DNA of 64,000 nucleotides from a virus. Below are positions 26,738 to 52,604 of the stretch, piece by piece; positions within the stretch are counted from its first letter, which is position 1; each line of letters starts with the position of its first letter. The stretch spans positions 96,001-160,000 of the IMG/VR virus record IMGVR_UViG_3300007734_000761. One strand, given 5' to 3'. The translations under genes were made by a program, and so were the position numbers. Under the pieces are notes generated by a model. That model saw only the letters and a list, made by a program, of their open reading frames with translations. It was not told the origin of the DNA and searched no databases.

Positions 26738-28474
26738 TTAAACTACTTGCAAGTCAGCAACTTCGATCTTACCGTAGTAATCAGGACGGAGCATTTTCTT
26801 AGCGTAGCGAGTCATTACACCTTTACGTGGTGTGAATGTTGTAGGATCATAGATCAATGGAGTCATGATCAATGGAACATAAGGAGCATAAACGGCACCA
26901 GTTTCCAAGAACTGAGTTCCTTTGTAACCCAACAAGATAGTATTCCACTTCATGTAAGGGTTTTTGTACACCTTGTAACGACCATTGATTGAACCGATTT
27001 TCTGAACACCAAATGCATATTTCATTGTTTCTGCATCTGCGTTATCAGCAGCGAATCCAGGGATTGATTCCAAAATAGTAGCAACTGAAGGAGAAATTAC
27101 CATAAAGTTAGCACCACCACGTAATGTTTTCTGGTGGATCAAGTTAGAAACTTTTTGTAATTTAATTCCTAAAGTTTGGAACCAAGACATTTGGTTGTAG
27201 TAAACACCAGCTGTATTGCTTGTGAAAGCAGTACCGTTTGAGTTGATTTGATTACCAACTTGAGCACTCCAGTATTGAGTGTTAGAAGCAGCAGCACCTG
27301 TGATCAACATACCTAAAATTTCAAGGTCAATTTCCATTGAAATTTGCTCAGATAACATTGAAGTCAATTCAGCTTCAGCGTCTAAGTTTTGGTATGCATT
27401 CAAGTCTTGAGCGAATTCAGGAGTCCACTGAGCTTTCAATTTACGAGTTTCAGCAGTAATACTATCAGAAACTAACTTAATGTTTAATTCAGGGAATTCG
27501 ATGTCGCTATATGACTGTACGTTAGGAGATGCTAATGGGTTTCCACCGGCTTCGTAATCACCAACGTTGAATGGGTTCATAGAACCTTGTTTCAAGAAAG
27601 TTACTGTTGTAGCAACGTTAACTGTACTTCCGCTTAACAAACGATTTGCAAGAGCTGCGCTAGAAGCAGATACGTAGAAAGTAGTAGCAGTATTAGTAAT
27701 TGTAGTGTAATCAGCCAAAATACTATTAGCATTAATAGAAGCTGTAGGAGCAACTAAGTAGAAAGCTTGAACACCAAATACGTCTACAGAAGCTGTAGTA
27801 TAACCGCTAGCAATACCTTGAGCAATAGCTTGAGCGTTAATTTGAACGTTAGGAATAACTACTTGATAAATTTGACCAGCATTACAAGAGTTAATGTAAT
27901 TAGAATCGAAATTGATTAAGTAGAAGTTTGAACCAGTTGTAATTTGAGTTACAGCAGAAGCAGATACACCAGAAGCTGAGAATTCGTTACGAGAGTATCC
28001 AAATCTACCAGCACCATAGTAACCACCTTCAGCTAAGTTGTCGAAGTTACTGTTACCAAATCCTGGAGCTGGAGTACCATAAAGTGAATCACCAGAAGTA
28101 AATGGAGTTTTAGTAGTACCATACTGGAAGTCCAAGTAGAAAATAAGACCAGTTGGCATTTGCATTGGCTGAACAGAAACGAATTCTTTAGCCACTACTT
28201 GTCCAAAAATCTTACGTACCATTGGAAGAGCAACACCAGCCCATTGGTAACCTTGACCAGTTGTAAAACCAGAAGTAGCACCAGCAGTAGTGTTTGTTTC
28301 AACGATAAGTTCCTTGGCTTGGTTTTCGAGCAACATCGACATGTTTGTTTTGTCGTATCCGCTCAAACCTTCCAATAAACCAGATTTAGCCCATTTGTTT
28401 GCTAAACGAGTCGCGTCGCCTTGCAAAGACTGCCATGGGTTAGCAGATTCGAGAAGTTGATTAATTGTTGACAT
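26738..28474 (-). CDS. gp23: Major capsid protein (T4 gp23-like)
   Basis: LPMVRKIF, VSVQPM..PTGLIFYLDF, TRKLKAQWTPEFAQDL.AY..LDAEAEL, EIDLEIL, YAPYVPL, FTPRKGVMTRY motifs; codon bias typical of high expression. Confidence 0.97.
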   Translation of the reverse strand: MSTINQLLESANPWQSLQGDATRLANKWAKSGLLEGLSGYDKTNMSMLLENQAKELIVETNTTAGATSGFTTGQGYQWAGVALPMVRKIFGQVVAKEFVSVQPMQMPTGLIFYLDFQYGTTKTPFTSGDSLYGTPAPGFGNSNFDNLAEGGYYGAGRFGYSRNEFSASGVSASAVTQITTGSNFYLINFDSNYINSCNAGQIYQVVIPNVQINAQAIAQGIASGYTTASVDVFGVQAFYLVAPTASINANSILADYTTITNTATTFYVSASSAALANRLLSGSTVNVATTVTFLKQGSMNPFNVGDYEAGGNPLASPNVQSYSDIEFPELNIKLVSDSITAETRKLKAQWTPEFAQDLNAYQNLDAEAELTSMLSEQISMEIDLEILGMLITGAAASNTQYWSAQVGNQINSNGTAFTSNTAGVYYNQMSWFQTLGIKLQKVSNLIHQKTLRGGANFMVISPSVATILESIPGFAADNADAETMKYAFGVQKIGSINGRYKVYKNPYMKWNTILLGYKGTQFLETGAVYAPYVPLIMTPLIYDPTTFTPRKGVMTRYAKKMLRPDYYGKIEVADLQVV

Positions 28475-28493: not shown

Positions 28494-29894
28494 TTATTTT
28501 GTAATAATACCAGCTAATTGTTGCATTCTTGTAATTTGATCATCTGTACTGATAATAGGTGACTTAGCTGTTGTACCACCTACGATACTAGAAGCAAATG
28601 ATTTGTGTTCTTTCAAAGTAGTTTTAGAACTTACTTTAGAAGTTTTTACTGTGTTTTTCAATACTTCGTAAATGTTTTTAGCTTCAGTTAAAGTTTGTGC
28701 TTTATCAAAGCTATTAACAACATTTACTTTTTGGTTTTCAGTTAAGTTGCTTGCTTTAAACAATTTATTTACATAAATCAATTTAGCATTTAACAAATTA
28801 ACTTCATTTAATTGGCTACGAAGACTCTTAATTACATTGATTGCTTCTTCTAATTCTTTTTCTTTTTCTTTCTTTTTAGCTTCATCTACTTCTTTAACTT
28901 TTTCGTTGAGCTTCATAGAAAGTTTATTTTTGTAAGCACCATTTAAACCAGATTTCTTGTCACCAGCTGCACCATATGGTGCACCGATTTTGTTTTTAGA
29001 TTTACCTAAACCAAAAGGAGCATTAGCTTTCTTATCGTAAGCTTCGTCTAATTCTTTTTCTTTCTTACCACCTTTGTACTTAGCACGCTCATCAAGCTCT
29101 TCTTTTTCTTTTTTCTTTCTTTCGTAAAGAGCAAATAATTCGTCTAATTCTTCTTCTTTTGACTTTTTCTTTTTAGGTTTTTCTTCAGTCTCTTCTTCGG
29201 TTTCGTCTTCGATGTCTAAGTCGAATTCATCGTCACCTCCAGCGTCCATGTCCGTCATGTCCATGTCTGTCTCTTCGTCTCCAGCAGCACCAGCTTCACC
29301 ACCCATGACAGCTCTAATAGCGTCTTGGATCATGTCGCGAAGTTCGTCTACTGTTACTTCGTCGATGCTCTCACCTCCACTAGCTTTTTCAAACATAGTG
29401 TTTTCTTCGAGTTCTTCTTTACCTTCTTCCATTTCATCATCGCCTTCATAAATTTCATTGGCTTCTTCTTCAAGCTCACGTAAGATTTCTTCAAGATCGT
29501 AATCTTCTTCTAAATCTTCTTCGCTCATTTCAGAATTCATTTCCATCATGTCGTCGTCTTCTTCAGAAAGAGAATTGAAAAGTTCTTCAAGATCGAGTTC
29601 TTCCATGTTGTCATAGTCTTCTTCAAGTTCGTCTTTTCCTTCTTCCATTTCTTCAGTTTCATCTAATGAATCAATGAGATTGTCTTTGTCTACGATGTAC
29701 GTAGCTTTTTCTTTAAGCTCTTCCTCTTTCTTTTCTTCTAATTCGTCAGCTTCCATTACACGTCTTTCAAACATGCTCTGAATGCGAGGCATAAAAGATT
29801 CTTCAAGGGCGGCTTTTGCGTTAGCGACGGCAACTTCACGTAAAGTTTTGGCGTCAGCAATTGCGTCTTTAAATAATTGTTGGTTGTTTGACAT
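28494..29894 (-). CDS. Prohead core/scaffolding protein
   Basis: Very acidic coiled coil between protease and capsid genes; AIADAK.LRE.A.ANAK.ALEE and LNEVNLLNAKL.Y.NKLF; many L-x-E sites; ends RMQQLAGIITK. Confidence 0.85.
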   Translation of the reverse strand: MSNNQQLFKDAIADAKTLREVAVANAKAALEESFMPRIQSMFERRVMEADELEEKKEEELKEKATYIVDKDNLIDSLDETEEMEEGKDELEEDYDNMEELDLEELFNSLSEEDDDMMEMNSEMSEEDLEEDYDLEEILRELEEEANEIYEGDDEMEEGKEELEENTMFEKASGGESIDEVTVDELRDMIQDAIRAVMGGEAGAAGDEETDMDMTDMDAGGDDEFDLDIEDETEEETEEKPKKKKSKEEELDELFALYERKKKEKEELDERAKYKGGKKEKELDEAYDKKANAPFGLGKSKNKIGAPYGAAGDKKSGLNGAYKNKLSMKLNEKVKEVDEAKKKEKEKELEEAINVIKSLRSQLNEVNLLNAKLIYVNKLFKASNLTENQKVNVVNSFDKAQTLTEAKNIYEVLKNTVKTSKVSSKTTLKEHKSFASSIVGGTTAKSPIISTDDQITRMQQLAGIITK

Positions 29895-30033: not shown

Positions 30034-30663
30034 TTATTTTATGCAACAAACTCCCGTTTGATTACAAATAATATCTGTAATCAGTGAGTTAATTTTTGAG
30101 TATTGGTTAGATATTTGTTGAGTGTATTGTTTACCTTCAGCTAAACTTACTGGTTTCATGTAAGCTCCATGTGTACTTGGTGTACTTACAAAATCCCAAC
30201 ATACTAAATCAAAATCATCTTGTACTTCTACAGTATTTTCGCCTAATTGTTTAACACTACCCATTCCTCTTGAACTAATTCCTACAGTAATGTTATTTAA
30301 CAATAAATCTTTTAAAATATTTCCACTAGGTGTATTAAGAATTTCAATACGGCCAAATAAATCATCACCTTCCCATCGTAATTGTTTAATATTGTGACAA
30401 ACATTTTTTAAACTAATAACAGAAGACTCTGGGTGATCTAATTCACCCAAAGCTCTGTTTTGGGCAATCGGGCCTGCAATGTATTTTTCTACTTCTCTAT
30501 GGAGAATTGCTTTAGGATAAACACGACCGTTTTCATTTTTGGCATCTGCACGCTGTACAATACCTTCTACCACTAAATTTTTATTAGGGCTCATTTTAGC
30601 CTCATTAAGAGACTGAGGTGTTGGCTTGAATGCCAAATATTCTATTAAAACTTGTTTAGTCAT
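30034..30663 (-). CDS. gp21: Prohead core protease (T4 gp21-like); likely start MTKQVLIEY at 30663
   Basis: N.NGRVYP, ALGELDHP, TPSGNIL, GISSRGMGSV and DFVSTPSTHGA motifs. Confidence 0.95.
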   Translation of the reverse strand: MTKQVLIEYLAFKPTPQSLNEAKMSPNKNLVVEGIVQRADAKNENGRVYPKAILHREVEKYIAGPIAQNRALGELDHPESSVISLKNVCHNIKQLRWEGDDLFGRIEILNTPSGNILKDLLLNNITVGISSRGMGSVKQLGENTVEVQDDFDLVCWDFVSTPSTHGAYMKPVSLAEGKQYTQQISNQYSKINSLITDIICNQTGVCCIK

Positions 30664-31705
30664 TTGGATCGTTTGGGTTATCAAACTTAGCATTAAAACC
30701 TTGATCTGTTAATTTTTTAAGTGTACTCATATCTCCAGGTTTTACAGATACTATTCCTCTAGCCATTTCATGTACTAAAGTTAAAATTTGATTTTTAGTA
30801 GTAGGAGTTAACTTAATTTTTCTAGAGTCTTTTACGTTTACATCTTCGTTTATGTCTTCTTCAAAACCACTTAATGTTCCTCTATTGTAAAATCCTGGGC
30901 CGGGTTTATCTGCTGTTTCTTGATTACTAATTGTGTAATCCATTCCTTCTTCTACACCCTTACTAAGAAGTCTTTCTAAAGCACTAGCTAAATCTTTTTT
31001 ACCTTCTTCTTTTAACTTAGCTACTAACTGTTTTAATTTTGCTAATTGTTGTGCAGGAATGCCTTTAGACTCACTCATTGGAGCATCATTAATATTTTTA
31101 ATAGCTTTCTTTACTTTATCTTGAATTTCTTCGTCTTTATCGCGTTTTTCAGCGTATTGTCTTAGTAATTTAATGACTTGATTTTTCTTAGCTGTATCTC
31201 CTTTAATAGCATCTCTAACACTTTTAATAAGTTCTCCGTTATTATCCATAGCGGCTAAATAAGATGCTGGATTAAGTGTATAAACATCATATCCTTCATT
31301 TAATTTAGCTGGTTCCATTCCAGAAGACTTATATTTACCTTTAACTTCGTCTTTAAGACCATATGGAGCGTCTTGTTTATCAGCTTTAGGCATTTTACCA
31401 TCTTTTTTTATGGCTTCAGCACTTTTAGCAGTATTTTTTACTCCAGGTTTTTTACCAGATCCATATTCACCCACCATTTTAATGGTTTCGTTTACTAACA
31501 TGTTAGTGTAAAAATTAGGATCTTTTTTAAGATTTTTCAAAACTTTACTTTGGGCTTCTTTGATAGTATCAACGTTAATGGTTTTACCAGAAGTTGTTAA
31601 TTCATAATCCATCCCATTTTCAAATTCGTAAATATTGACTTTGTCTATTTCACGAACTACAGGAGTGATGTATTTATCAAAGTAAGATTTATTAGGATTA
31701 CTCAT
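30656..31705 (-). CDS. Hypothetical head-associated protein with several L/I-x-E sites
   Basis: FENGMDYEL and V.KNL.KDP.FY motifs; in the head module; LVNE, LNE, MSE and INE linkers. Confidence 0.6.
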   Translation of the reverse strand: MSNPNKSYFDKYITPVVREIDKVNIYEFENGMDYELTTSGKTINVDTIKEAQSKVLKNLKKDPNFYTNMLVNETIKMVGEYGSGKKPGVKNTAKSAEAIKKDGKMPKADKQDAPYGLKDEVKGKYKSSGMEPAKLNEGYDVYTLNPASYLAAMDNNGELIKSVRDAIKGDTAKKNQVIKLLRQYAEKRDKDEEIQDKVKKAIKNINDAPMSESKGIPAQQLAKLKQLVAKLKEEGKKDLASALERLLSKGVEEGMDYTISNQETADKPGPGFYNRGTLSGFEEDINEDVNVKDSRKIKLTPTTKNQILTLVHEMARGIVSVKPGDMSTLKKLTDQGFNAKFDNPNDPND

Positions 31706-40438: not shown

Positions 40439-40693
40439 ATAAATTTTTAATTTAAGTTTACCATTTCCTTTAATAGCTCTATGCCATTTGTGTTTAGGAA
40501 TGTAAATTGGTTTATTTAATGAAGTTGGTAATTCGTTGTCTAATTGAATTTTCCAATTTGTTTCACCAATTATTTCAATTGTTCTGTCTTCATTATCACG
40601 ATGCCACATCAATTCTATAGGATCAATGTTTTCATCAAATTCCCTAATAATATATTTGTCAGTAATTTCTAAATCTTTATACGGCTTTATCAT
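40430..40693 (-). CDS. Small cupin-like protein
   Basis: WHRD.EDR...W..QLD...IP...WHR.IKG pattern. Confidence 0.65.
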   Translation of the reverse strand: MIKPYKDLEITDKYIIREFDENIDPIELMWHRDNEDRTIEIIGETNWKIQLDNELPTSLNKPIYIPKHKWHRAIKGNGKLKLKIYLV

Positions 40694-41102
40694 CTGTAAG
40701 AGGACCGCCTACAACCCAAGCATTACAAGTTCGAGCTGCAGCACATTTAAACTTTAAAAACCTACAGTATCCTAATTGACCTGCTTTAATAACATCAAAT
40801 GGATCTTCTGTACCTTCATCACTACCTATTCCTTTAGCTATGCAATCTAATGTTTTTGTTGTAATATCAAATGCAGCACAGTTACCACAACGAGAAGATT
40901 TAGCTTCTTCTATAGAATCAAGTTTCCACATGTCTACTTTATCCTGCCAAAATTTATCGTTTGGTTCATTTGGGTTTAGAGGACCATATCCATACTCATT
41001 AATTGCTTTTTGTCTGTTTTGAAGATTTAATTCAATATTTTGAGTGGGGGCAGGACATTTACTTATTTCTGCTTCGTTTAATATATTAATTAGTTTTATC
41101 AT
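40677..41102 (-). CDS. Tagged (MIKLINILNE) Cys-rich putative internal head protein
   Basis: N-terminal tag; CP.PTQ, YGP.NP, CGNCAAF and GYC..LKFKCAA.RTC.AW. Confidence 0.7.
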   Translation of the reverse strand: MIKLINILNEAEISKCPAPTQNIELNLQNRQKAINEYGYGPLNPNEPNDKFWQDKVDMWKLDSIEEAKSSRCGNCAAFDITTKTLDCIAKGIGSDEGTEDPFDVIKAGQLGYCRFLKFKCAAARTCNAWVVGGPLTDDKAV

Positions 41103-41419
41103 TTTTTATCTTTAATTAACAATTCACCTAAAACTTCTAAACGACCAACTTCTCTTTGAAATTCAATTTGAGACATGTCTAAAGAGATTTTTTTATAAGT
41201 TTCCTCGTATTCTTTTTTTGCTTTTTCTAAATCTAATTTACCTTCACTTGCCTTTTTGTAATAGGGTAATTTAACTTTAAAGTGGTGCCAAGTTAAAAGC
41301 GCTAAACCTCCTTTTTTGTGAGCATTATCAGCAATTTTTTTAGCTCCACTCATACGAGTTTGACTAAAATCTTCAAATTGGTTTTTTGCTTCTACTAGTA
41401 TGTCTTTAAATTTAATCAT
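41099..41419 (-). CDS. Tagged (MIKFKDILVE) putative internal head protein
   Basis: N-terminal tag; ATGA overlap with neighbours. Confidence 0.7.
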   Translation of the reverse strand: MIKFKDILVEAKNQFEDFSQTRMSGAKKIADNAHKKGGLALLTWHHFKVKLPYYKKASEGKLDLEKAKKEYEETYKKISLDMSQIEFQREVGRLEVLGELLIKDKK

Positions 41420-41775
41420 TTTTTTAATCGTTGAGTTTTTCTTTTAGATGCTTCTTTTCTGGCAGTGATGTATGTTAGTCCTTTTTTTAAACGAGCTTTT
41501 ACTTCAGGATTTTTGGCTTTACTATATGCTGCTCTTACACGTTGATGAATTAAGTTAATAATCTGTGATTGGCGAGCATGGCTTTTTGCTTTAAAAGATG
41601 ATTTAGACAATGTATTTTTAATGTCTTGAACAGTTTTAAATTTAACACCTACAGTATCTGTTGGATCTTCATCTGTGTATAAACGGCGACTTGATCCTTT
41701 TGGCTTTTTACCTGTGCCTACTTTAGGATCAGCCTCATTTAAAGATTCTTTTAGAAGATCTACTAGTTTAATCAT
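41416..41775 (-). CDS. Tagged (MIKLVDLLKE) basic putative internal head protein
   Basis: Tag followed by DPKVGTGKKPKGS.RRLYTDEDP.DT. Confidence 0.7.
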   Translation of the reverse strand: MIKLVDLLKESLNEADPKVGTGKKPKGSSRRLYTDEDPTDTVGVKFKTVQDIKNTLSKSSFKAKSHARQSQIINLIHQRVRAAYSKAKNPEVKARLKKGLTYITARKEASKRKTQRLKK

Positions 41776-42500
41776 TTTGTTTTACCCCATGTTTTACCTT
41801 TACCTGGTCTTTTACATTGAGAAGGTGTAGGTCTACATGATGGATATTTTGATCTTACCTCACCTTTTTTACGGCCACAAGGTTTACATTTTCCATCACG
41901 ACAAGTATTACAATCTACCCATCCTCCTGTTTTACCTGGTGCTCCTTTACGTTTAAACCAAGTTCTTAATGTTTCTTTTTTAGCTTCATCTAATTCAGAT
42001 TTTCTATTATTAATATAAGTTTCAATATCTTCGGCTTTATAGCCTAATAGTTGACCTATTCTTCTAGCATCTTCATCAGTAGCTTTATATGACAAATAAC
42101 CATTGTATTTTTCTGCTATGTCTTTTAACTCATTAGCTTCATTTTCTGCTCCTTTTACATAAAAAACATAAGCTCTATGGGGATTTGAAGGAACTTTAAT
42201 AGTACCTAAATCAAACTTTTTTACAATATCCCAAAAATTTTTTTCAGGAAAATCCATGCCATCTAAAACCATAAAACCTAATTTTCGTTTTCCATCTAAA
42301 ACAGTTTTTATAGAACCTTTATCCTCGTATGCTTCTTCAGCACTAATTTCTTCTTTTAGTCCCTTCCAAATATTTCCTTTACGACATCTAACAATAGCAC
42401 CAGACTTATATGCTGAAGGTTTACTGTAACGACGATCTGCTATGCGTTTACAGCGATCTTCAGTAAGTACTTCAAGTAATATGTTAGTAAGTTTAATCAT
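41772..42500 (-). CDS. Tagged (MIKLTNILLE) three-module putative internal head protein
   Basis: Modules (PSAY.SGA.V.CRK; central domain; LR.WF...GWVDC...CGR...YP.CRP) separated by LKEE and LDE. Confidence 0.7.
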   Translation of the reverse strand: MIKLTNILLEVLTEDRCKRIADRRYSKPSAYKSGAIVRCRKGNIWKGLKEEISAEEAYEDKGSIKTVLDGKRKLGFMVLDGMDFPEKNFWDIVKKFDLGTIKVPSNPHRAYVFYVKGAENEANELKDIAEKYNGYLSYKATDEDARRIGQLLGYKAEDIETYINNRKSELDEAKKETLRTWFKRKGAPGKTGGWVDCNTCRDGKCKPCGRKKGEVRSKYPSCRPTPSQCKRPGKGKTWGKTK

Positions 42501-43375
42501 ACAGAAATTGAAGTTGATATGTCACCTGTAGGTATTAACTTACCACCCATATTTTCTATTTTTTGTTTCATTTCTTCAAAGTTTTTTGGTATTACACTTA
42601 CTTTAAAACTTTTTGGGTTTTCTTGAACAAATTTAAAAAAATCATTTAATGTAGGAAATAAACCTGTTATATTAGGACGATTTTTATAATCATATTTTTT
42701 TAGTTCAACAGCTTCTCCGGGTATTTTTAAGTACTGTTTTTTTTCTAAAAATGGTTTTAAAAATCCATATTTAGTTGCTCTAAATACTGTTATTTTTTTT
42801 AATTTACCATTAAAATAAAAAATTCCTAATTCCTTTTTTATTCCATTTTCTACACTTCCATATTGTACTGCTAGTCTTCTTTGTGCTTCTCTAGGTAATT
42901 CTATAGTAAAATTTTCTGTTACCGAAAAATCTATTTTATTTACGTTTTTATCTATTTTTATTTTTCTTAAGGCTTTAGATAAATCAATGCCTTGAGTCAA
43001 ATCAGAAGTAGGAGCTGATGAAACTGTAAACTCATCATCTATGTCTACTCCTAAGTCTTTTGCTTTAATAGCTGCACCTTCTACAGGCATTATAATGCCA
43101 TTCTGCAATAAAGCTTTTATAAACGTACTAGCGTTACCTGTTCCTTTAATGTTGAATACTTTTTTAACATCATCTACATTGAAATGATTTATGTCTTCTA
43201 AAGATTCCATTTTCAAAACAATGTCTTGAAATCTAGGTCCTGAGCCTCTAACATTAGATATTTTACTTTCCCAGTCATCTGTTAAAGTGTAGAACTTCTT
43301 TATCTGTGGCATTTCAGCCAAATGTCTTTTTACAGCTTCTACTAGTATTGCTTTTATTAAATTTCTTTTTTCCAT
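42497..43375 (-). CDS. Hypothetical protein with an N-terminal LIKAILVE/LAE tag variant
   Basis: ORF translationally coupled within the tagged array. Confidence 0.6.
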   Translation of the reverse strand: MEKRNLIKAILVEAVKRHLAEMPQIKKFYTLTDDWESKISNVRGSGPRFQDIVLKMESLEDINHFNVDDVKKVFNIKGTGNASTFIKALLQNGIIMPVEGAAIKAKDLGVDIDDEFTVSSAPTSDLTQGIDLSKALRKIKIDKNVNKIDFSVTENFTIELPREAQRRLAVQYGSVENGIKKELGIFYFNGKLKKITVFRATKYGFLKPFLEKKQYLKIPGEAVELKKYDYKNRPNITGLFPTLNDFFKFVQENPKSFKVSVIPKNFEEMKQKIENMGGKLIPTGDISTSISV

Positions 43376-43376
43376 A

Positions 43377-44009
43377 TTACCAAAATCCTGAGTATGATGA
43401 TTTTAATCCTAATAATTTAGCGTAGCGAGGTAAACGACAACTCCAGTAACTTGCTTTTGTTCTGTCTTTTTTATTAGGACAATCGTGACGTTTTGAAAAA
43501 GCAGCTCTTGCTTTAGAGTTATTAATTTTAGCTGACAAACCAGTAGTGTCACCAAATGATACTTTTTTAACTCCACCACCTGGTTTTCTTACATAAACAT
43601 AGAATTTTTTAGATCCACCACGTTTTGGTTTACCAATTGGAGGTATTTTTTTCTTTTTATCTGCTTCTTCTAAGTCTACTTCTTCTAATAGTAAGTCTAT
43701 TGGAACTAATTTACCATTGTAAAAATCAAACGTACCAATTTCTGTTTCTTCTAAAAGTTGCTTGTCAGCTCCATCGAAAGTTATTTGTTTATTTTCATGT
43801 AACCATCTAGCTTCTTGCCATAAGTCAAGAAAAGATTCACTGCCATATCTAAATGTATTTTCAGTAATAGGAAGTTTTTGATAAACATGATATAACATGT
43901 TAGGACTAATTTTTTCTGGGTTAGTCGATTCTGTTAGTAAAGGAGCTTTAGGTCTGGCGCAAGTTGGACATCCTGATCCTTCTAACAATATGTCTTTTAA
44001 CTTAATCAT
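43377..44009 (-). CDS. Tagged (MIKLKDILLE) two-module putative internal head protein
   Basis: FRYGS..F..L..EAR module, then KKFYVYV...VSFG...F..RH.C..K....YWSC module after LEE. Confidence 0.7.
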   Translation of the reverse strand: MIKLKDILLEGSGCPTCARPKAPLLTESTNPEKISPNMLYHVYQKLPITENTFRYGSESFLDLWQEARWLHENKQITFDGADKQLLEETEIGTFDFYNGKLVPIDLLLEEVDLEEADKKKKIPPIGKPKRGGSKKFYVYVRKPGGGVKKVSFGDTTGLSAKINNSKARAAFSKRHDCPNKKDRTKASYWSCRLPRYAKLLGLKSSYSGFW

Positions 44010-45760
44010 TTTGGTCTGTTCGTTGATTTTACTTTTAAACTAGGAAGTATACCTCCTGCTGAATTTCTTATATCTATTTGATAAATAGTTTCACCTCCTT
44101 CAGGACTGTTAGTAGTAACTCTTACTTCACATGACTTACTTGATATTGATGGATATTTTACTTTTACTTTAGTTACTTCTCCAATAAGTTCATCAATATC
44201 TTCCTTTTTATTTATATCTTTTATATAAAGTTCGCCTGGTTTGATTTGTCTTACATAATAATACCCATAACCATAACTAGATCTTAAGAAAATAATGATT
44301 TTTTGTCCATCATAATCAGTAATATCTTCCCACTGTGCCGGTACTCCTTCTTGTTTAACGTAATTTTCTAAACCCTCTGCTATTTTTTCAGGATTAACAC
44401 CAGTAATTTCAATTATTTTCTTAGTTAAACTATCATCCTTCATAAAACTATCTTCATCAAAATAAATATTTTTATCTGGGCTTTGTTTGATGAATTTTAA
44501 CGTTCCTCCATTATAAATGTAATCACCTTTTGGATCTTTTAATGAAATTTTATAATCTTGACCGTTAGCTTTAATAATAATATCAGCTATTTTTGTGCCT
44601 ATATCTTCAGGTTCTTCTAAACTTGGTTGACGTTTAGTATCTATTTTACCTGTACCTTCTATATCGTCTGCTTTTATAGTTTGAGGATTAATTTCAAGAT
44701 AATCAAAAAGTTGTTTTACTTCTTCATCTTCTATATCTTTTAATTCTTTACCTGCACTCTGTTTTAACTTATCTACAAATTCTTTTTCATAAGCTTCTCC
44801 TTTATTAGCCCCTGATGCTAATATTACACCAACAGGTCCAAACTCAGTTTCAAAACTATACATAGGAAATCTATTGCTACCATAAGGTTTAACATTTATA
44901 CCTGTTTTAGGAGGAATTATTGTAATGTTAGCGTCTGGATATAAAGTTTGTAGTAAAGCTTCGAATTGTTCGCTAGGTATTTTATTTGGGTTTGCTACTC
45001 TTGAACTTTTGTTCATGGGTTTAAATCCAAATTCTTTATTTTCTTCAGAATTTAAAATTCTTTGAACTACTTTACCACTATTTTGACCTATAGAACCTTC
45101 CAAAAGTAAAACTTGTCTTAATGCTATGCGAAACGCCGTTGGGTACTTTTTACCTATTTCTAAAAGCGTCTTTTTTTTTGACTCTACTAGAGGTGTAGTA
45201 GTAGTTTCTTCTGCTGTAGGTAAACTTTCATTTCCTGTTGGTGGAGCTCCCTCTCCTCCTCCTCCTGCGAATGGGTTAGATCCTTCAGAAGGTAATGGTG
45301 TTTCTGTAGATTCATTGGCCATTGCTTCTTCACTTGGTTCAAGTCCTAACGGAGCTCCCATCATTAATAAGCGAGCTATAGCATCAATTGCTCTTCCTCG
45401 TTCTCCTACATTTAATAAGTAGTATTTTTTACCAGCTATTTTAGCAATCCAAGTTCTTCCCATGTAAATCATGTAAAAAAACTGGTTGTTATGTAAAATT
45501 ACTTTAAAAGTTGTAGGTATAGGAGCAATAACGTAAATACCTGTTATATAATCTAAAAAATCATTACTAAGTAATGTTTGGAGAGATTCTTTTAATGTAG
45601 GGTAACTATAGAGTATATAACCTATTGGATCTTCTTCAAATGTAGGAACTTTCTTAGTATCTTTGTTGAACTTTTCAATGTAAGCCTTATCCGTTTCCTT
45701 AGATGTACGGAATTTTTGGTATTCTTCGTCGAATATTTTTTGAAAAGTTTTAATATTCAT
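44006..45760 (-). CDS. Modular protein with a C-terminal PD-(D/E)xK restriction-endonuclease-like domain
   Basis: N-terminal domain (PIPTTFKV.LHN.Q.F), Pro/Glu linker, LVE/LLE sites, then NKG..YE...KIADIII......ISLK. Confidence 0.55.
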   Translation of the reverse strand: MNIKTFQKIFDEEYQKFRTSKETDKAYIEKFNKDTKKVPTFEEDPIGYILYSYPTLKESLQTLLSNDFLDYITGIYVIAPIPTTFKVILHNNQFFYMIYMGRTWIAKIAGKKYYLLNVGERGRAIDAIARLLMMGAPLGLEPSEEAMANESTETPLPSEGSNPFAGGGGEGAPPTGNESLPTAEETTTTPLVESKKKTLLEIGKKYPTAFRIALRQVLLLEGSIGQNSGKVVQRILNSEENKEFGFKPMNKSSRVANPNKIPSEQFEALLQTLYPDANITIIPPKTGINVKPYGSNRFPMYSFETEFGPVGVILASGANKGEAYEKEFVDKLKQSAGKELKDIEDEEVKQLFDYLEINPQTIKADDIEGTGKIDTKRQPSLEEPEDIGTKIADIIIKANGQDYKISLKDPKGDYIYNGGTLKFIKQSPDKNIYFDEDSFMKDDSLTKKIIEITGVNPEKIAEGLENYVKQEGVPAQWEDITDYDGQKIIIFLRSSYGYGYYYVRQIKPGELYIKDINKKEDIDELIGEVTKVKVKYPSISSKSCEVRVTTNSPEGGETIYQIDIRNSAGGILPSLKVKSTNRPK

Positions 45761-46386
45761 TACTTACGACGTAATTTTGCTTTTTCTATTCTTTCACCTT
45801 TAGCAACACCGGCACCAAAAGTATTTTTTTCACCTTTTTTACCAAAACGTTTTGCGTCTCTAGCACGTTTATAATCAGTATCGCCTCTTCCTTCATAGAA
45901 TTGAGCACCTAAAATAACATCTGAGTCAGAAGAACGCATAGATGGCATATCATCCATTTCTTCACTTTCTTCTCCAGCTAAATAATTATAAACTGAGTTT
46001 AGATAGTCCTCTGCTATAGTAAGTTTTGACTGTACCCATGCATCTAACTGTTCTCCATCGTCAATCATATTACACAACTTATCAGTTAAACTTTTAATAG
46101 AACGAAGCTGACCATGAGCCATATCTGATTCATCATCTGGCTGCTTCCAATCATCTTCTTCTAAATCCTCAGCATCAAAAGACATATTTGGTCCTGTTGG
46201 ATTTGGAACTAATGGTTGTTCTTTCATATTTTTAGCAGCACGTAATGCTTTAAAATCAGCACCTGTAATTTTATCTTTAGGTTCAGCTGCAGATGCTATT
46301 TTCATTTGTTTATCAGACAATTCATTAAGCTCTTTTAAAGCTTGCTGCATGCGCCATTCGTGGATGTCAAAATTATTGTTAGTCAT
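45760..46386 (-). CDS. Hypothetical modular head-associated protein
   Basis: N-terminal FDIHEW..LKE|LNE; KITGADFKALR module; MA.GQL....LDAWVQSKLT.AEDYL module. Confidence 0.65.
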   Translation of the reverse strand: MTNNNFDIHEWRMQQALKELNELSDKQMKIASAAEPKDKITGADFKALRAAKNMKEQPLVPNPTGPNMSFDAEDLEEDDWKQPDDESDMAHGQLRSIKSLTDKLCNMIDDGEQLDAWVQSKLTIAEDYLNSVYNYLAGEESEEMDDMPSMRSSDSDVILGAQFYEGRGDTDYKRARDAKRFGKKGEKNTFGAGVAKGERIEKAKLRRK

Positions 46387-46726
46387 TTTTATATTCTGTT
46401 ACTTCGGCGCCTAATACATTAGGCATTTTTTTACGGATATTTTCTAAAATCTTTTTAAGTCTTTCAGAAGTTACTTTACCTTCTTTAGCACTTACCTTTA
46501 TTCCTGTTGAGTCTTTAATCTCAAATTTAAAAGGTGGTTCAGACATTTTTGATTCTTTAGCTAATTTAGAATAGTTACTAGGATTGCTTAACCATTTCAT
46601 AGCACTATTTCTTAAACCTTCTGATTTAAATACAAAACCTGGTGTTAGTACCTCTACTACTTCCTTTTCTTCAGAAATAATACCAGCTAACGCCTGCATT
46701 CTTTTTATTTCAACTGCTGATTGCAT
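46379..46726 (-). CDS. Hypothetical protein with an N-terminal RMQALAGII motif
   Basis: Motif matches the scaffold C-terminus RMQQLAGII. Confidence 0.65.
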   Translation of the reverse strand: MQSAVEIKRMQALAGIISEEKEVVEVLTPGFVFKSEGLRNSAMKWLSNPSNYSKLAKESKMSEPPFKFEIKDSTGIKVSAKEGKVTSERLKKILENIRKKMPNVLGAEVTEYKND

Positions 46727-46727
46727 A

Positions 46728-47072
46728 TTATTTTTCTAACTTTGCCATTTCAGCATAAAGTCTTTTCATTTCGTTATGCATCTTTTCTATTTCACTCATT
46801 GAATTTTCATATCCTTCGTGTGTCATAGTTTCATACATACCTTTTACATTATTATGCATTTCACCCATTTCAGCCATTAATTCTTCTTTTTTCTTTCCTA
46901 CATTAAAGGCTTCAACGATTTCTTTTAATTCGTCTTTAGCAGCTTTAGGATCGTTGGCATAAAGAGCTTTTAAATATTGTTTTACATCTCCTTTAGTGCA
47001 ACCAACTTTTGCACCCATTTTTCCGTCTTTAGTTTTTTTATAGACACATTTTCCTTTGGCTTTGTATGGCAT
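46728..47072 (-). CDS. Hypothetical protein
   Basis: MPYK.KGKCVYKK...KVGC...YL.ALYAN, then LKE; ATATTTAT upstream at 47093-47100. Confidence 0.65.
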   Translation of the reverse strand: MPYKAKGKCVYKKTKDGKMGAKVGCTKGDVKQYLKALYANDPKAAKDELKEIVEAFNVGKKKEELMAEMGEMHNNVKGMYETMTHEGYENSMSEIEKMHNEMKRLYAEMAKLEK

Positions 47073-47087
47073 AATTATAATATTAGT

Positions 47088-47678
47088 TTATGATAAATAT
47101 GTATCAATCTTAGCTCTTTGGTCAGCAATCCATTGTTTAGTTTCTTTTATTTGTTCTGGAGTTAAACCTCTACCATCCCAACTTTCTACTTCTCCAGTTT
47201 CACTCATAACTTTTTCAAAACCATTAGAAACAAAATCATCAAATTCTTTTTCGGTTTGATCTAAAATGTGTAAATGATTTTTAAAATACATATTCTTCGC
47301 GTATTCATCAAAGATACCGGCCAGTTTCATGTTAGTTTCTTCTTTAGTCACGCACTTTGGACATTTATGCGCAAGCTTATAAATATGTTTTACATACTCA
47401 CTTTGTCTAGCTAAAGGTTCACTACATTGAGGACAAGTAAGAGGCATAATATTTGTGTCTTTAAACTTAGCTAACTTACTTACAGTACGTTTTACACCAT
47501 TTTTAATAGTCCACGTTTTACCATTTTCATCCCAAACGTCTCCTTCTTGTCTTTTTACTTGAGATTCATAACCTGCCTGAATTGTAGTTCTATCTCCAGT
47601 TTTTTTCGTAATAATATTACGCATTCGCTGAACTTCACGTTCAGTAAACTGTCTATTTAGTAAAGTTTCTTTACTCAT
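47088..47678 (-). CDS. Hypothetical protein with two CxxC pairs (zinc ribbon)
   Basis: EGDVW.E.GKTWTIKNG, CPQC and CPKC motifs. Confidence 0.7.
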   Translation of the reverse strand: MSKETLLNRQFTEREVQRMRNIITKKTGDRTTIQAGYESQVKRQEGDVWDENGKTWTIKNGVKRTVSKLAKFKDTNIMPLTCPQCSEPLARQSEYVKHIYKLAHKCPKCVTKEETNMKLAGIFDEYAKNMYFKNHLHILDQTEKEFDDFVSNGFEKVMSETGEVESWDGRGLTPEQIKETKQWIADQRAKIDTYLS

Positions 47679-49977
47679 ATTTAAATTTATATAACTTTTT
47701 TATTGATTCTCTTGAGTCTTCTGGATTGTTTTTTATTCCTGTTCCACCAGCTTGAATAAACTGACTAACGTTTGAACCCACATCATCAATCAACATATAA
47801 CCTGGTTTTGCTTCTGTGTGTTTGTCTTTAGCTTGTTTGTATACTCTTCTGTCTTGAGGAATATTTAAATGTTTGTCTACCCATTCATTTTTTCCCTTTT
47901 TAGCATCTCCGTTTGGATCTAAACCTGGTGATGATAATATCCATACTTCTATACCTTTTTCATCAGCTATTTTCATAACGGCCTTATAAAGTTCTTCTCC
48001 ACCTGGATTCCAAGGCATTGTTGACCAAAACTTTACTTTGCCTTTATTAATTATATCCCAAGCTTTATTAGCACCATATTTTCCAATGTATGATTTAAAA
48101 TCTAAATTTTCTTTGTTGTATTTTTTAAATTGATCATCAAAACCAGCTAATACTCCATCTAAATCAAAGTAGATTCTTGTAATAGGAGGATTTGTTTCTT
48201 TAGATTCATTTAACATTCCAATATTATAAATGCTAGGATTTTGTTTTCCATAGTCTCTCATTAATATACCGGCAATAGCATTGGCATCATTTTCATGTTC
48301 ACTACCAGTTTCGCCTGAATCTGGTTGTAATAAGCCCATTTCGTTTTGTTTAGCATGAACTAACTCATGAGCTAACGTGCGAAGAACATCAACTATATTT
48401 CTGTTACTAGGATTGACAAATATATGATGTTTTGATGGAACATATGCTCCAAAACTTGGTTGATCTTCACCATATTCATATCTAATTTCAAACGAAGGAG
48501 GATTATGAATTTGAAGTTCGTTGCAAGCATAAGTCATGAATTTTTCAAAAAGTGAATTTTTATCAACAGACTCATTTAAAGATAAAGTTTTATCTATAAA
48601 AGAATTTTTTAGATTATTAAGTTTTTCTAAATAACCTGTGTTTCTTAAATTTTTAAATGCTAAGTTTTCTAATGAATATTCACCATCTTCATCTAATCCT
48701 GTTTGTCTAAAGTTTTTAAGACGTTCTTTAATTTTATTTGTAAGTTCTATCGCTTTTTCAGGATTATTTTTACCTATTTTTTCTAATTTATCTATTTGTT
48801 GTTTAAATAACTTTGCTTTCTTTTCAATTTCTTCGTCAGGAATATTTATTTCTACAAAAGACGGTTTACGTAACCATTTATCATTCATTAAGCTGTATTC
48901 ACCTCTATATTCAGGATGGTCTTTATTATCTTGAATGTAAACTTCAATATTTTGTTTGCCTAATTTTAAATCATGAACCCTATTCCAGTTAACCTTTGCT
49001 TCATCAAAGTATTTTTTTAACAATTCAGGATTTTCAAATTTGTCAAAATCAACAACAATGTGTAAATCTATGTCAGATGTTGGAGTATAATTATAATTTA
49101 CACTACTTCCTGTTAAAAGAATATCTTCAAACGGTTCAGGTATTTCTAATCCTTCCCAAAAATAATTAGCTACTTTTAATAATAACTCTTTTACTTTTGG
49201 GTCTACTTTATCATCAGTATCAAAAATTAAAGGATTTAATTTATTTTGACTCTTATATTCTAACCAAACCCACTGAGGTTGTTTTTTAGGGTTTGGTTGA
49301 GTTCCTTCTTGTAAACTAGCTGGTTCAGGAAAATTAATTCCTAAAACTCTCTGAATGTCATCTAAGTATCCTTTTTGTATTACTGCTTCAGGAAATAAAC
49401 TTTTAAAGTAGTTATATGTAGTATTATAATCGTTTAATGCTTTTTTATCTCCAGGATTATTTTTTACTTGAAGATATCTTTGTCTTAATTCAGCTATTGT
49501 AGCTCTAAAGTCAGTTCCACTAACTCTATCACCATCACTATCTACAAATTGATCATCTACAATTTCTTCTTGAACTCTATCACCAAAAGCCTCTTTTAAA
49601 CCTTTAAAATATTCTAAATCATCTGCTTCTTTACCAGCAGCAGCAACATAAGCTTCTCTATTTAAGTCATCTCCAAACCATCTATAAAGATCTCTAATAG
49701 GAGATTTAGTCTTAGCAATTTCAACTTTAATTTTTGGATTTGGTTGGGCTTTTAAATAAATGTCCCAAATTGCTTTACTTTGTTCTGCTGTAATTCCACC
49801 TCTTTTACCGTGACCTATTAATACATTTACTTGAGTAATATAAGGTTTTGCTGCTAATTGTTGAGCAGCGGCAAGATGACCTTTATGTGGTGGTTTAAAA
49901 CCTCCAGGATACCAACAAATTTCAGGTTTTTTGGCTACTTCTTCTCCTATTAATTTTCCTATTTCTGCTACGTTCAT
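47671..49977 (-). CDS. Four-domain polyprotein: HIGH cytidylyltransferase-like, Pol-beta nucleotidyltransferase, HExxH metallopeptidase-like and HAD 5'(3')-nucleotidase-like
   Basis: YPGGFKPPHKGH; LLTGSSVNYNY...SDIDLHIVVD; RTLAHELVH.KQ...E..ANA.AG; IYFDLDGVLA.F...ILSS...K..W...LIDD. Linkers are LQE, LNE and LNE. Confidence 0.8.
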   Translation of the reverse strand: MNVAEIGKLIGEEVAKKPEICWYPGGFKPPHKGHLAAAQQLAAKPYITQVNVLIGHGKRGGITAEQSKAIWDIYLKAQPNPKIKVEIAKTKSPIRDLYRWFGDDLNREAYVAAAGKEADDLEYFKGLKEAFGDRVQEEIVDDQFVDSDGDRVSGTDFRATIAELRQRYLQVKNNPGDKKALNDYNTTYNYFKSLFPEAVIQKGYLDDIQRVLGINFPEPASLQEGTQPNPKKQPQWVWLEYKSQNKLNPLIFDTDDKVDPKVKELLLKVANYFWEGLEIPEPFEDILLTGSSVNYNYTPTSDIDLHIVVDFDKFENPELLKKYFDEAKVNWNRVHDLKLGKQNIEVYIQDNKDHPEYRGEYSLMNDKWLRKPSFVEINIPDEEIEKKAKLFKQQIDKLEKIGKNNPEKAIELTNKIKERLKNFRQTGLDEDGEYSLENLAFKNLRNTGYLEKLNNLKNSFIDKTLSLNESVDKNSLFEKFMTYACNELQIHNPPSFEIRYEYGEDQPSFGAYVPSKHHIFVNPSNRNIVDVLRTLAHELVHAKQNEMGLLQPDSGETGSEHENDANAIAGILMRDYGKQNPSIYNIGMLNESKETNPPITRIYFDLDGVLAGFDDQFKKYNKENLDFKSYIGKYGANKAWDIINKGKVKFWSTMPWNPGGEELYKAVMKIADEKGIEVWILSSPGLDPNGDAKKGKNEWVDKHLNIPQDRRVYKQAKDKHTEAKPGYMLIDDVGSNVSQFIQAGGTGIKNNPEDSRESIKKLYKFKYE

Positions 49978-50816
49978 GGTTTAGCAAATGTTTTTACTGC
50001 TCCTACTGCTTCTCTATAATTTAGAGGTTTAATAATTTTTAAAAACTTTTCAACAGTTTTAAATTGATCCTTAATATTTTTAACAGCATCACTAAATTTC
50101 TTCTCTGCTGCTTTTTTCTTTTCTTCTTTTGCCTTTAAAGTTTCAGGATCTGGTAAGTCTTTTGATGTTTTTACATCAGAAGGTTGGGGTTTACTGAAAC
50201 TAGATCTGTATTTTTCTGGATCTGTTTGTATTAACTGTTTAAAGTAATCTTCTAATTCACCTGACTTTAGTACTTTTTCAAATTTATTAACATTTGCTTT
50301 TTCAGCAGGTGATAATTCTGTTTGAACAACTAAATACTCAATACCAGGAATGCTTTTATAGCTACTTATTTGGTTATATACTTTAGCCCAATTATTTAAC
50401 ACAACTTCTTTAGGTAATTTTCTACTTCTATTAAAATTTCTTAAAAAGCTAACAATAGGACTTCCGTAAAGTGTAATAACCATTACTTTATAACCATTTT
50501 GTTGTGCGTTACTCACAATTTCTGCTGTTTCTTTAAAATTTTGTCCTGTAGTATCATAAATAAAATTTTGTTTTTTACTAATAGCATCAGGAATAGCCTT
50601 AGTTCTTATAATAATATTATTTTTACTTATGTTAGGTCTATCAGGATCATCTTCTGGATTAAAAGTATCAGGATTGAATACTCTAAAATCTGAAGGTATA
50701 TTTCTTACTAAATCATTTATTAAAGTTGATTTACCCATTCCTGCTGCTCCTGATAGAATTATTGCTTTTGGTTGTGTGCCAAAAACTTCTAATAACAAAG
50801 ACTGCAGATTAATCAT
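49974..50816 (-). CDS. Tagged (MINLQSLLLE) zeta-toxin/AAA_33-like P-loop kinase
   Basis: PKAIILSGAAGMGKST, FNPD, FIYDTTG, GYKV and RN..R.R.LP motifs. Confidence 0.7.
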   Translation of the reverse strand: MINLQSLLLEVFGTQPKAIILSGAAGMGKSTLINDLVRNIPSDFRVFNPDTFNPEDDPDRPNISKNNIIIRTKAIPDAISKKQNFIYDTTGQNFKETAEIVSNAQQNGYKVMVITLYGSPIVSFLRNFNRSRKLPKEVVLNNWAKVYNQISSYKSIPGIEYLVVQTELSPAEKANVNKFEKVLKSGELEDYFKQLIQTDPEKYRSSFSKPQPSDVKTSKDLPDPETLKAKEEKKKAAEKKFSDAVKNIKDQFKTVEKFLKIIKPLNYREAVGAVKTFAKP

Positions 50817-50820
50817 ACAT

Positions 50821-50828
50821 ATAAATAT
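50821..50828 (-). promoter_or_regulatory. ATATTTAT putative late promoter (start of the tagged array)
   Basis: 4 nt before the ATG at 50816. Confidence 0.65.
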
Positions 50829-50829
50829 G

Positions 50830-51612
50830 TTACATTTCTAGTTTTACTGATGTAGGTAATTTTTCAAATAAAGGTTTTTGATCTGGGTTTTCTAATATAT
50901 AAATGTCGTAAATATTTTTAAACATAGTAAAGTAGTCTTCTAATGGTTTTTCAGGTTGAACAATTTCCCAACCATTGCCTTGCAATTTACCTTCTTTACC
51001 TTTTCGCTTACTACTTTTTAACCATAAAATCCCACTTTCTTCAATTTTTACATCGCTGTGTTCATTCCAAGCATTAGCATAAGCTGATAACTGGAGATTG
51101 TGACTAGTATGTAAACTATTACTTGTTTTAGTATCTAATAACCAAACTTTATCGTTCATTTTTACTACTAAGTCACAAGTTCCAGCATATTTGTGTTCAT
51201 GACTCAATAAATGTATTTCACTAGCTATTAATTCTGGTTTGCAAGTATTCCAAAAATCACTAAATTTCAAAATCATTTTCCAAACTTCTAAACTATAATT
51301 AGCTCGTTTGTTTTCATCTACCCAAACAATTTCTTCACCTTTTAAAAATCTTTCAATAGCATCATGAACTTGAGTTCCTTCTTCACTAGCTCTTCTAACA
51401 ATAATATCACTGTTATGACCTACATCTTTCAACCAACTTTCAAAAAATTTATTTTTAGGATAAAAACCTAAAACTGTAGTTACAGAAGGATAATAGTCTC
51501 CATTTTCTGTTTTGTAAAATCGAGAATCTAAAAAGTTAATTTGTTCTCCTTCGTGTTCAACAATCCTTTTTAAATAAGGATGTTTCTCAATGTTGTGGCC
51601 TTTTTCTATCAT
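50830..51612 (-). CDS. PD-(D/E)xK exonuclease (Cas4/RecB-like phage exonuclease)
   Basis: YPSVTTVL, GT.VH..IE, SE..L, YAGTCD, LDTKTS and QLSAYA motifs. Confidence 0.85.
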   Translation of the reverse strand: MIEKGHNIEKHPYLKRIVEHEGEQINFLDSRFYKTENGDYYPSVTTVLGFYPKNKFFESWLKDVGHNSDIIVRRASEEGTQVHDAIERFLKGEEIVWVDENKRANYSLEVWKMILKFSDFWNTCKPELIASEIHLLSHEHKYAGTCDLVVKMNDKVWLLDTKTSNSLHTSHNLQLSAYANAWNEHSDVKIEESGILWLKSSKRKGKEGKLQGNGWEIVQPEKPLEDYFTMFKNIYDIYILENPDQKPLFEKLPTSVKLEM

Positions 51613-52535
51613 ATATTCATTTTAAGTAACATAATGTCACTAAAAGTTAGTGGATTAGCATTATGTAATTTTTTTGTAAAAGTTTCAAAACCCATTTCAC
51701 TTGGATCTTTATCATCCATATCAACCCAATATACTTCTTTACCGTAATTCGTTAAGGTAAGCGCGTGATCTAACGCGTCTTTTTTAGCATCGCGATCTAA
51801 TGCGATATAAATAGTTTTTACCGAAGATTCAACGAGTTTCTTCATAAGAGCATTAGAAATACTTTTACCAAAGAGAGGAATAGCGTTACGGCGCACAGAA
51901 ATAGCATCAAATGCTCCTTCAACAAGAATAATCGGCATCTCCCAAGATATGAGTGCCTCAAAACCAATAATCTCATTTTTGTTACATTTGGGTGTATCAT
52001 ACTTTCTACTAGCATTCGGATCCATAGTTCGAGCCACGAAATAGTTGATACTATAATTGTTATCATAAGAGGGAATAATGATGCTATTAGCATAAGGTCC
52101 AGTAGATGCATATCCTATGTTGTATTTTATAAGTTCAGTTTCAGTAATGCCTCGTTTTTTTAAATAAACTTTAGCTCTTCTTGCTTCTAAACTTGTGTCT
52201 GCTATTAAGTGTTTAAAATCTTTAGGTAATTGAACTTCTGTGTGTTCTACTTTTAAGTCTTCTTTAGGACTAACACCTAAAATACTTCTTAATTCAAGAG
52301 TTTTTTCTCTAGGTGTTTTTATTTTTTTAAATAAAGTCGGAAGTTTAAGTCCTTTAACGTTACAAACCCAACAGTGATAAGGATTTTCACCTTTTAAATT
52401 AGTTTGTAGTTTTACTTCTAATTTAGGTTTATGATGGTTACAAAAAGGACAATTAAAGGCATAATTACCACTACTAGACTTTTTGCCTTTACCTAATACG
52501 CTTTCAAGACAGTTTAATAATAGTATGTTATCCAT
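51609..52535 (-). CDS. DNA primase (zinc finger plus TOPRIM); likely start MDNILLL at 52535
   Basis: CPFC..H...HCWVC, YL.KRGI, IIIPSY, LVEGAFDA, IALD.DA and KDP motifs. Confidence 0.9.
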   Translation of the reverse strand: MDNILLLNCLESVLGKGKKSSSGNYAFNCPFCNHHKPKLEVKLQTNLKGENPYHCWVCNVKGLKLPTLFKKIKTPREKTLELRSILGVSPKEDLKVEHTEVQLPKDFKHLIADTSLEARRAKVYLKKRGITETELIKYNIGYASTGPYANSIIIPSYDNNYSINYFVARTMDPNASRKYDTPKCNKNEIIGFEALISWEMPIILVEGAFDAISVRRNAIPLFGKSISNALMKKLVESSVKTIYIALDRDAKKDALDHALTLTNYGKEVYWVDMDDKDPSEMGFETFTKKLHNANPLTFSDIMLLKMNI

Positions 52536-52542
52536 TATTAAT

Positions 52543-52571
52543 ACTATAATAAAAAAGGCTTGGAAAACCAA
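52543..52571 (-). promoter_or_regulatory. TTGGTT-N17-TATAGT promoter for primase
   Basis: -35 at 52571-52566, 17-nt spacer, -10 at 52548-52543, 7 nt before the ATG at 52535. Confidence 0.6.
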
Positions 52572-52574: not shown

Positions 52575-52604
52575 CTTAATCTTATTTATTTTAATATTTA
52601 ATGT

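Follow-up and report, generated by a model that had tools for sequence, protein, structure and literature searches.

Encapsulin cargo-loading peptides are short, sit at either end of the cargo and dock unrelated proteins inside a shell of the HK97 fold, and in herpesviruses the scaffold and the protease share a C-terminal capsid-binding tail that is released by cleavage at the maturation site. In bacteriophage T4, internal proteins are loaded via a 10-residue N-terminal leader which is removed by the protease, and Alt is trimmed at both ends; the T4 protease gp21 cuts after L/I-x-E and requires just that (PMC9026906). The T4 capsid targeting sequences (CTS) have an affinity for the scaffold core rather than for the shell, and gp22 and the internal proteins co-purify (PMC9026906). 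At the C-terminus of the phage 80alpha scaffold, 16 residues fold into an amphipathic helix of 11 residues and a hook of 5 that contains RIIK (PMC5644958); with this tail the scaffold binds the capsid protein, at its N-arm and at a hydrophobic cleft (PMC5644958; PDB 6B0X, 6B23). CpmB, a protein of the satellite SaPI1, bears the same tail as the 80alpha scaffold and binds alike (PMC5644958), while the scaffold C-termini of phi29 and P22 also bind coat protein (as cited in PMC5644958).

To this background we compared a locus in a 64,000-nucleotide stretch of viral DNA (henceforth the window), which corresponds to bases 96001-160000 of a 176,311-bp T4-like phage genome with 32% G+C. The minus strand holds nearly all genes of this phage, among them a head gene module with the following features (coordinates are those of the window):

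Portal gene of the head module (PF07230, E 6.5e-69)
30034..30693, minus strand: prohead maturation protease of the T4 gp21 family (Pfam Peptidase_S77, PF03420, E 5.7e-31; PHROG 207, E 4.7e-57)
28494..29894, minus strand: putative head scaffold gene, 466 aa, acidic, assigned by gene order
26738..28474, minus strand: major capsid protein, candidate docking partner (Pfam Gp23, PF07068, E 1.3e-76)
about 26690-26730, minus strand: G+C-rich hairpin followed by a T run (GACCCGCTTCGGCGGGTCTTTTTTT), directly 3' of the capsid gene, between it and a PhoH-like gene

Judged by its capsid protein, the nearest isolate of this phage is Flavobacterium phage immuto (49% identity), followed by Microcystis phage Mel-JY01 (45%), a 484-kb uncultured phage (44%) and Rhodothermus phage RM378 (39%), with T4 and the cyanophages much more distant than any of these. 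The 466-aa protein is encoded between the genes of the S77 protease and of the Gp23-family capsid protein, and this position, together with its acidic composition, points to a scaffold; the gene order protease-scaffold-capsid is repeated in about 70 related loci. Pfam returned no PF25623 match in the 466-aa protein (T4 gp22 itself scores E 6.8e-89), and homology between the two was rejected (BLASTP of the pair, E 36). The N-terminus of the scaffold (..QQLFKDAIADAK..) resembles that of the immuto protein (..DLLKQAIAEAK..) and faintly that of T4 gp22 (MLKEQLIAEAQK), the proteins being unalignable elsewhere (comparison of window 28494-29894, L123:2998-4239 and L125:8118-8927); the I-A-E site in these N-termini may be an old shared feature. 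The hairpin and T run that follow the capsid gene look, from the letters, like an intrinsic terminator.

An earlier note on the window had claimed that the C-terminal motif of the scaffold, RMQxLAGII, is reused at the N-terminus of a second protein. The ends and coordinates it gave were exact: the scaffold ORF (28494-29894, minus strand) ends DDQITRMQQLAGIITK, ORF 46379-46726 (minus strand; henceforth ORF115) begins MQSAVEIKRMQALAGIISEE, and positions 46670-46726 encode residues 1-19 of the latter. The two peptides are indeed identical at 8 of 9 positions over RMQxLAGII, after which ORF115 continues with I-S-E, the I-x-E site that had also been claimed. We then ran the regular expression [RKQ][MLIV][QKRE].[LIMAV]AG[ILV] over the six-frame translation of the whole genome and found five matches, all on the coding strand, all in real ORFs and all at protein ends. 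The reuse is thus wider than the earlier note had it, which overlooked three further copies in the genome. The proteins that carry the five copies are as follows:

28497..28544, minus strand: C-terminal 16 residues of the scaffold, regarded as the original of the tag (DDQITRMQQLAGIITK; 42 bits)
46670..46726, minus strand: N-terminal tag of ORF115, residues 1-19 (MQSAVEIKRMQALAGIISE; 25 bits)
genome 82462-84195 (L001:6462-8195), outside the window, minus strand: 577-aa protein with the motif at both ends (starts MSTLPNNETQRMQVLAGL, ends EEIQRLQKLAGIIE)
genome 168019-169308 (L002:8019-9308), outside the window, minus strand: 429-aa protein with the motif at its extreme C-terminus (ends LLERLQRLAGL)

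This number of copies far exceeds what composition would produce. Specifically, R-[ML]-Q-x-L-A-G-[IL] has five copies in the genome against 0.08 expected per proteome, and five were not reached in any of 300 shuffles. All five fall within the terminal 8.5% of positions (P ~4e-6), and in a position matrix they score from 42 down to 11.7 bits, with the next best site of the proteome at 1.7 bits. Synonymous sites differ among the copies, meaning that selection acts on the peptide; for the same reason a recent DNA duplication was rejected as the origin of the match.

Two of the proteins have further features of their own. The 577-aa protein contains a hydrophobic, membrane-like segment (..WKRIVTGALALIIAANSLYGPIVTAF..) and its N-terminal copy is without an adjacent cut site; possible roles of the protein are those of a packaged ejection protein and of a cross-linker in the core. 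The 429-aa protein adjoins a 1,537-aa protein and bears a leader, MIKLKSLLLEE, at the N-terminal end in addition to its C-terminal scaffold-type motif.

Two weaker echoes named in the earlier note fared less well, as the motif matrix scored neither. QRMRNII (in ORF 47088-47678) aligns with VNRARNLV of the immuto homologue and is thus ordinary conserved sequence. RMQQAL, from the ORF next to ORF115, is no intact copy, and may be a relic, i.e., a decayed tag:

45760..46386, minus strand: 208-aa neighbour ORF, N-terminal HEWRMQQALKELNE, possibly a decayed tag

Residues 84-147 of this 208-aa protein are homologous (E 3e-7) to an N-tagged protein of a relative (L008:3167-3574).

The scan of relatives that the earlier note had proposed was carried out on two samples. 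For the first, a DNA pattern for RMQxLAGII was searched in IMG/VR, which gave at least 125 matches; this sample was chosen by the motif, though not by reading frame or position, and the conservation figures below come from the second sample instead. Among the matches listed, 125 out of 125 were in frame and all but one or two stood at the end of an ORF (one further listed match counts as terminal on condition that translation starts at an internal Met). Some 80 of the matches listed end ORFs, mostly of 300-470 aa; where the flank suffices, these long ORFs have a homologue of the capsid gene directly downstream and one of the protease gene on the other side. About 43 of those listed fall within ~20 residues of the start of small ORFs, with two or three on several contigs. 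The second sample was drawn via the capsid gene alone, independently of the motif, and consisted of 76 directly upstream ORFs, every one of which (76/76) ends in R-[MWF]-x-x-[LI]-A-[GN/F] plus one to six residues. The tail is kept down to 39% capsid-protein identity, as illustrated by the following scaffold ends:

immuto: ..SRWQKLAGIIK
Mel-JY01: ..ERMKKLAGIVK
RM378: ..ERIKRLAGL
484-kb uncultured phage: variant ..SRMQKLADIS

The motif is absent from the ends of gp22 of T4 and of cyanophage S-RIM8, which have different termini. In five near-complete related genomes (83-100% by CheckV), motif hits were terminal in 7 out of 7 cases and a reversed-pattern control gave none; position 2 of the motif showed no co-variation between scaffold (W) and tags (M/L) in these five genomes.

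The shortness of the motif is the one point that speaks for a resemblance by chance or history with no present function. We consider that reading scarcely credible, given five copies where 0.08 are expected, the terminal position of nearly all of the at least 125 listed matches and of all seven hits in near-complete genomes, conservation to 39% capsid-protein identity, and the synonymous differences among copies. The motif is almost certainly a selected, shared terminal module.

The sequence around the motif carries a second regularity. In 70 of the 76 sampled scaffolds, [ILVM]-x-E stands 5-8 residues before the motif Arg (five others have Asp instead), and a cut at this site would leave 15-17 residues as the terminal peptide in 63 of these 70 scaffolds. 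The scaffold of the present genome is without such an upstream site and has Ser where relatives have Glu. By analogy with T4 gp21 (PMC9026906), the S77 protease of this phage would share the L/I-x-E specificity, and it is presumed to cut the (I/L)-x-E sites beside the tags. Given that the motif nearly always adjoins hydrophobic-x-Glu and that the phage encodes an S77 protease, the prohead protease itself could alternatively recognise or dock on the motif, which would then flag proteins to be processed, or bring the enzyme to them, without serving as a loading signal. This appears very improbable: L/I-x-E suffices for T4 gp21 (PMC9026906), the capsid protein has a conserved L-L-E site without the motif, many proteins of the genome carry a cut-site leader without it, and there is no nearby cut site at this scaffold or at the N-terminus of the 577-aa protein.

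We also examined the predicted shape of the module. In an AlphaFold model of the 60 C-terminal scaffold residues, residues 46-54 of this fragment (DQITRMQQL) form a helix that is followed by a non-helical AGIITK, with the highest pLDDT (84) in the last ten residues. The model of ORF115 (mean pLDDT 66) likewise shows a helix (residues 4-13), then a non-helical A-G-I-I-x tail and a flexible linker of low confidence (residues 17-25), which holds the I-S-E site and precedes a small alpha/beta domain; the tag of this protein thus consists of a short helix, A-G-I-I and a protease-type site. As read from the sequence, M, L, A and I, often with F/I three residues before the Arg, would share one face of the helix. 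A profile of the scaffold tail searched against solved structures found no phage scaffold (best match an unrelated protein, E 0.35), and a profile of the leader found no meaningful match there. The parallel with 80alpha thus concerns shape alone, the two tails having no homology in sequence.

ORF115 itself can be divided into the tag listed above and a presumed cargo:

46379..46669, minus strand: body of ORF115, residues 20-115 plus stop, small alpha/beta domain, presumed cargo

Compared with the PDB by Foldseek, the ORF115 model matched nothing beyond generic ferredoxin-like folds (E 0.1 or worse), and for the four motif-bearing proteins and their neighbours nothing rose above curated thresholds in Pfam or PHROGs. 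Orthologues of ORF115 (66-94% identity) came from metagenomes only; among 16 of them E19 of the cut site is invariant, and R9, M10, L13, A14 and G15 are at least 90% conserved. Some orthologues (P0156-P0159) carry an extra module of ~90 residues before the tag, which makes the tag internal; on the reading of these sequences it would become C-terminal on the first module after cleavage.

ORF115 lies within a run of genes, ~13 kb long, which bear another, T4-like leader, MIKLxxILxE. This second leader (M-I-K-L-x-x-I-L-x-E) begins at least 14 proteins of the genome. The capsid protein begins MSTINQLLE|S, with L7 and E9 invariant and L8 nearly invariant among 45 homologues, and the second leader therefore resembles the propeptide of the capsid protein itself. 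Upstream of ORF115, ORF 46728-47072 is translationally coupled to it and is preceded by a promoter-like element:

window 40677-53090 and genome-wide: M-I-K-L-x-x-I-L-x-E leaders (e.g., 40677, 41099, 41416, 41772, 43377, 49974)
47093..47100, minus strand: ATATTTAT, promoter-like element, just upstream of ORF 46728-47072
window 1355, 12087, 25944, 26679, 29986, 31710, 35456, 47093, 50821, 53095, 56228 and 63300, minus strand: ATATTTAT sites

The element occurs 20 times in the window against 11.8 expected, with 18 of the 20 copies on the coding strand, mostly from a few to ~25 nt before gene starts (those of the sheath and portal genes included); the copy before the scaffold gene is ~90 nt upstream. 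Its placement makes ATATTTAT a candidate late promoter element, and the T4 late promoter TATAAATA showed no enrichment in the window.

To see how far the tag extends beyond this genome, a 32-position profile of the N-terminal leader was compared with 1.84 billion representative proteins. It found 2,595 protein clusters at E <=0.001, of which 64 were at <=1e-10. In the best 150 of the 2,595 clusters the leader was N-terminal in 147, present in two copies in 11 and at both ends in 3, and 155 of the 161 leader copies in these clusters were followed by hydrophobic-x-Glu, mostly I-T-E. The proteins behind the leader are diverse: 107 tagged bodies formed 68 groups without a BLAST link, and in a 51-sequence alignment of tagged proteins the leader was the only common part. 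Pfam gave no matches on these 51, and on 116 tagged proteins it gave just eight families with one member each (RecA, NT5C, KaiC-type ATPase, HD, nSTAND3, AHD, PBECR4 and a HAD-type hydrolase).

Other arrangements of the tag are conserved as well. In the 577-aa family, the N-terminal copy is kept to ~40% identity and the C-terminal copy is kept in forms of ~580 aa; larger relatives of 870-1005 aa are double-ended too, and the motif also stands at both ends of P0012, P0013 and P0014. The 429-aa family keeps ..ER[LFYW]x[RK][LMI]AGL at its extreme end. Phage immuto has two N-tagged genes, immuto35A_42 and immuto35A_187, starting MKKQILSEQF[KR]RMQ[FK]LAGIITE, one of them in the gene neighbourhood of ORF115, and tblastn of the leader against phage isolates found immuto phages only. 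In another relative, a protein encoded just upstream of the protease (L064:3313-4866, minus strand) bears an N-terminal tag (MKKPINEVERLKLIAGLINE) and shares a domain with window ORF 30656-31705 (minus strand, 349 aa), which is without a tag and is likewise just upstream of the protease; in T4 this position is held by the prohead core genes gp67/gp68. A literature search found no paper containing the motif and no virion proteome of immuto or of any phage of the lineage.

As the tagged proteins are without assigned function and the 577-aa family has a membrane-like segment, one could suppose that the motif binds a partner other than the capsid (for instance a membrane component, a chaperone of the host or some other phage protein) which the scaffold shares. 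Such a partner is very improbable in our view, as it would leave both the prohead-protease sites and the head-gene neighbourhoods unexplained, and the one protein that always bears the motif, at its extreme end and in 76 out of 76 cases, is the scaffold.

The size and predicted shape of the peptide, both of which recall 80alpha, the consensus end ..I-I-K and the presence of sites that suit the phage's own protease lead us instead to a portable prohead-docking peptide. We propose that the last ~15 residues of the scaffold, with the clade consensus ..x-x-R-M-Q-K-L-A-G-I-I-(K), would form an amphipathic helix and a hydrophobic hook, i.e., a docking peptide complete in itself that attaches to the inside of the prohead during assembly, and that the lineage would have added copies of it to the termini of many proteins unrelated to one another. 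Where the tag is N-terminal it stands directly before hydrophobic-x-Glu, so that a T4-type prohead protease would free the cargo once it is inside; ORF115 would be such a cargo. In most scaffolds, the site 5-8 residues before the motif would let the same protease detach the body from an anchor of 15-17 residues. The peptide would most likely dock on the major capsid protein, on its inner face, as the tails of the 80alpha scaffold and of CpmB do. The same peptide would thus be an anchor on the scaffold and an address label on cargo, severed by proteolysis.

Very likely, in our view, the motif directs proteins to the prohead, whatever its partner there. If it does, the case for the capsid protein as that partner is about evenly balanced, the scaffold core is a doubtful candidate, and the portal or the protease would take what is left. 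The proposal as a whole, namely a portable, protease-severed docking tag derived from the scaffold tail and most likely docking on the inner face of the capsid protein, is in our judgement probably correct. Of the earlier note's idea that a second zip code docks cargo by mimicking the scaffold, the reuse of a terminal tag on unrelated proteins with an adjacent cut site has stood, and a predicted helix-hook shape has been added; docking itself is the proposed part.

The scaffold core deserves separate consideration as a partner. In that case the peptide would be the same address label, and tagged proteins would co-assemble with the core before the shell, like the T4 internal proteins, through pairing of the short helix with scaffold tails or with another part of the core. 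The T4 capsid targeting sequences bind the core and T4 internal proteins co-purify with gp22 (PMC9026906), the double-ended proteins (the 577-aa family and P0012, P0013, P0014) would suit a cross-linking of like helices, and the 429-aa protein joins the tag with the other T4-like leader. Against this, a helix of ~9-11 residues would be short for self-sufficient helix-helix assembly, the scaffold C-termini that have been studied bind coat protein (80alpha; phi29 and P22 as cited in PMC5644958), and a conserved cut site that leaves a tail of 15-17 residues fits release from a fixed anchor. On balance we regard the core as an unlikely partner.

Returning to docking on the capsid protein, a more far-reaching version would liken the system to encapsulins. 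Here the helix-and-hook tag would dock at the scaffold's site inside the shell, on the HK97-fold capsid protein, from either end of the cargo or from between modules, the head protease would act as a release switch, and the cargo would be a large, fast-changing set of injected proteins. We put this forward tentatively, as a possibility that we would not yet bet on. If it is true, the tag would read the packaged proteome of thousands of uncultured phages from metagenomes.

Should the motif be a loading signal, a single motif would identify the capsid-packaged and probably injected proteins of a widespread, almost wholly uncultured aquatic lineage, covering more than 2,500 protein clusters now without annotation. 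It would tie together the anchoring of scaffold to shell, T4-style leaders and the cargo-loading peptides of HK97-fold shells, and would be a case of a cargo tag visibly derived from a scaffold anchor. A tag of 15-20 residues that works at either end would also offer a handle for loading foreign proteins into phage heads. In immuto, an isolate, the scaffold tail occurs along with two tagged genes, which makes the idea directly testable.

Capsid targeting leaders and scaffold-tail mimicry are already known; what would be new is a cargo tag that is visibly the scaffold's own tail, its use at either end or inside a protein, and the scale. Compared with the T4 CTS (IPI, IPII, IPIII and Alt), the likeness lies in a short portable leader on unrelated, fast-evolving small proteins, which ends in an L/I-x-E site in a phage that encodes a gp21-family protease; the 577-aa family may in addition have propeptides at both ends, as Alt does. 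By contrast, the leader here is ~20 residues long and copies the scaffold's own C-terminal tail, the tag is also found C-terminal, double-ended and internal, and it marks thousands of protein clusters as opposed to a handful of proteins in T4. Moreover, T4 gp22 is without the motif, whereas this phage adds a second, more T4-like leader (MIKLxxILxE).

With 80alpha and CpmB the system shares the occurrence of one terminal peptide in both the scaffold and another protein, and, according to the models, ~16 extreme C-terminal scaffold residues with a predicted helix and hydrophobic hook and the consensus end ..I-I-K, although the spacing of helix and hook is not the same. Binding to the capsid protein is demonstrated for the 80alpha tail and proposed for the RMQxLAG tail. 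The 80alpha mimic, moreover, is a parasite's scaffold which redirects capsid size, whereas here the tag sits on varied proteins of the phage itself, mostly at the N-terminus and with a cut site after it. The herpesvirus scaffold offers the likeness of a protease site shortly upstream that severs the body from an anchored tail, but it belongs to an unrelated lineage, in which the sharing arises from nested in-frame genes and extends to one extra protein, with no portable tag. Encapsulin cargo-loading peptides, finally, differ in having another consensus, no proteolytic release and a non-viral shell.
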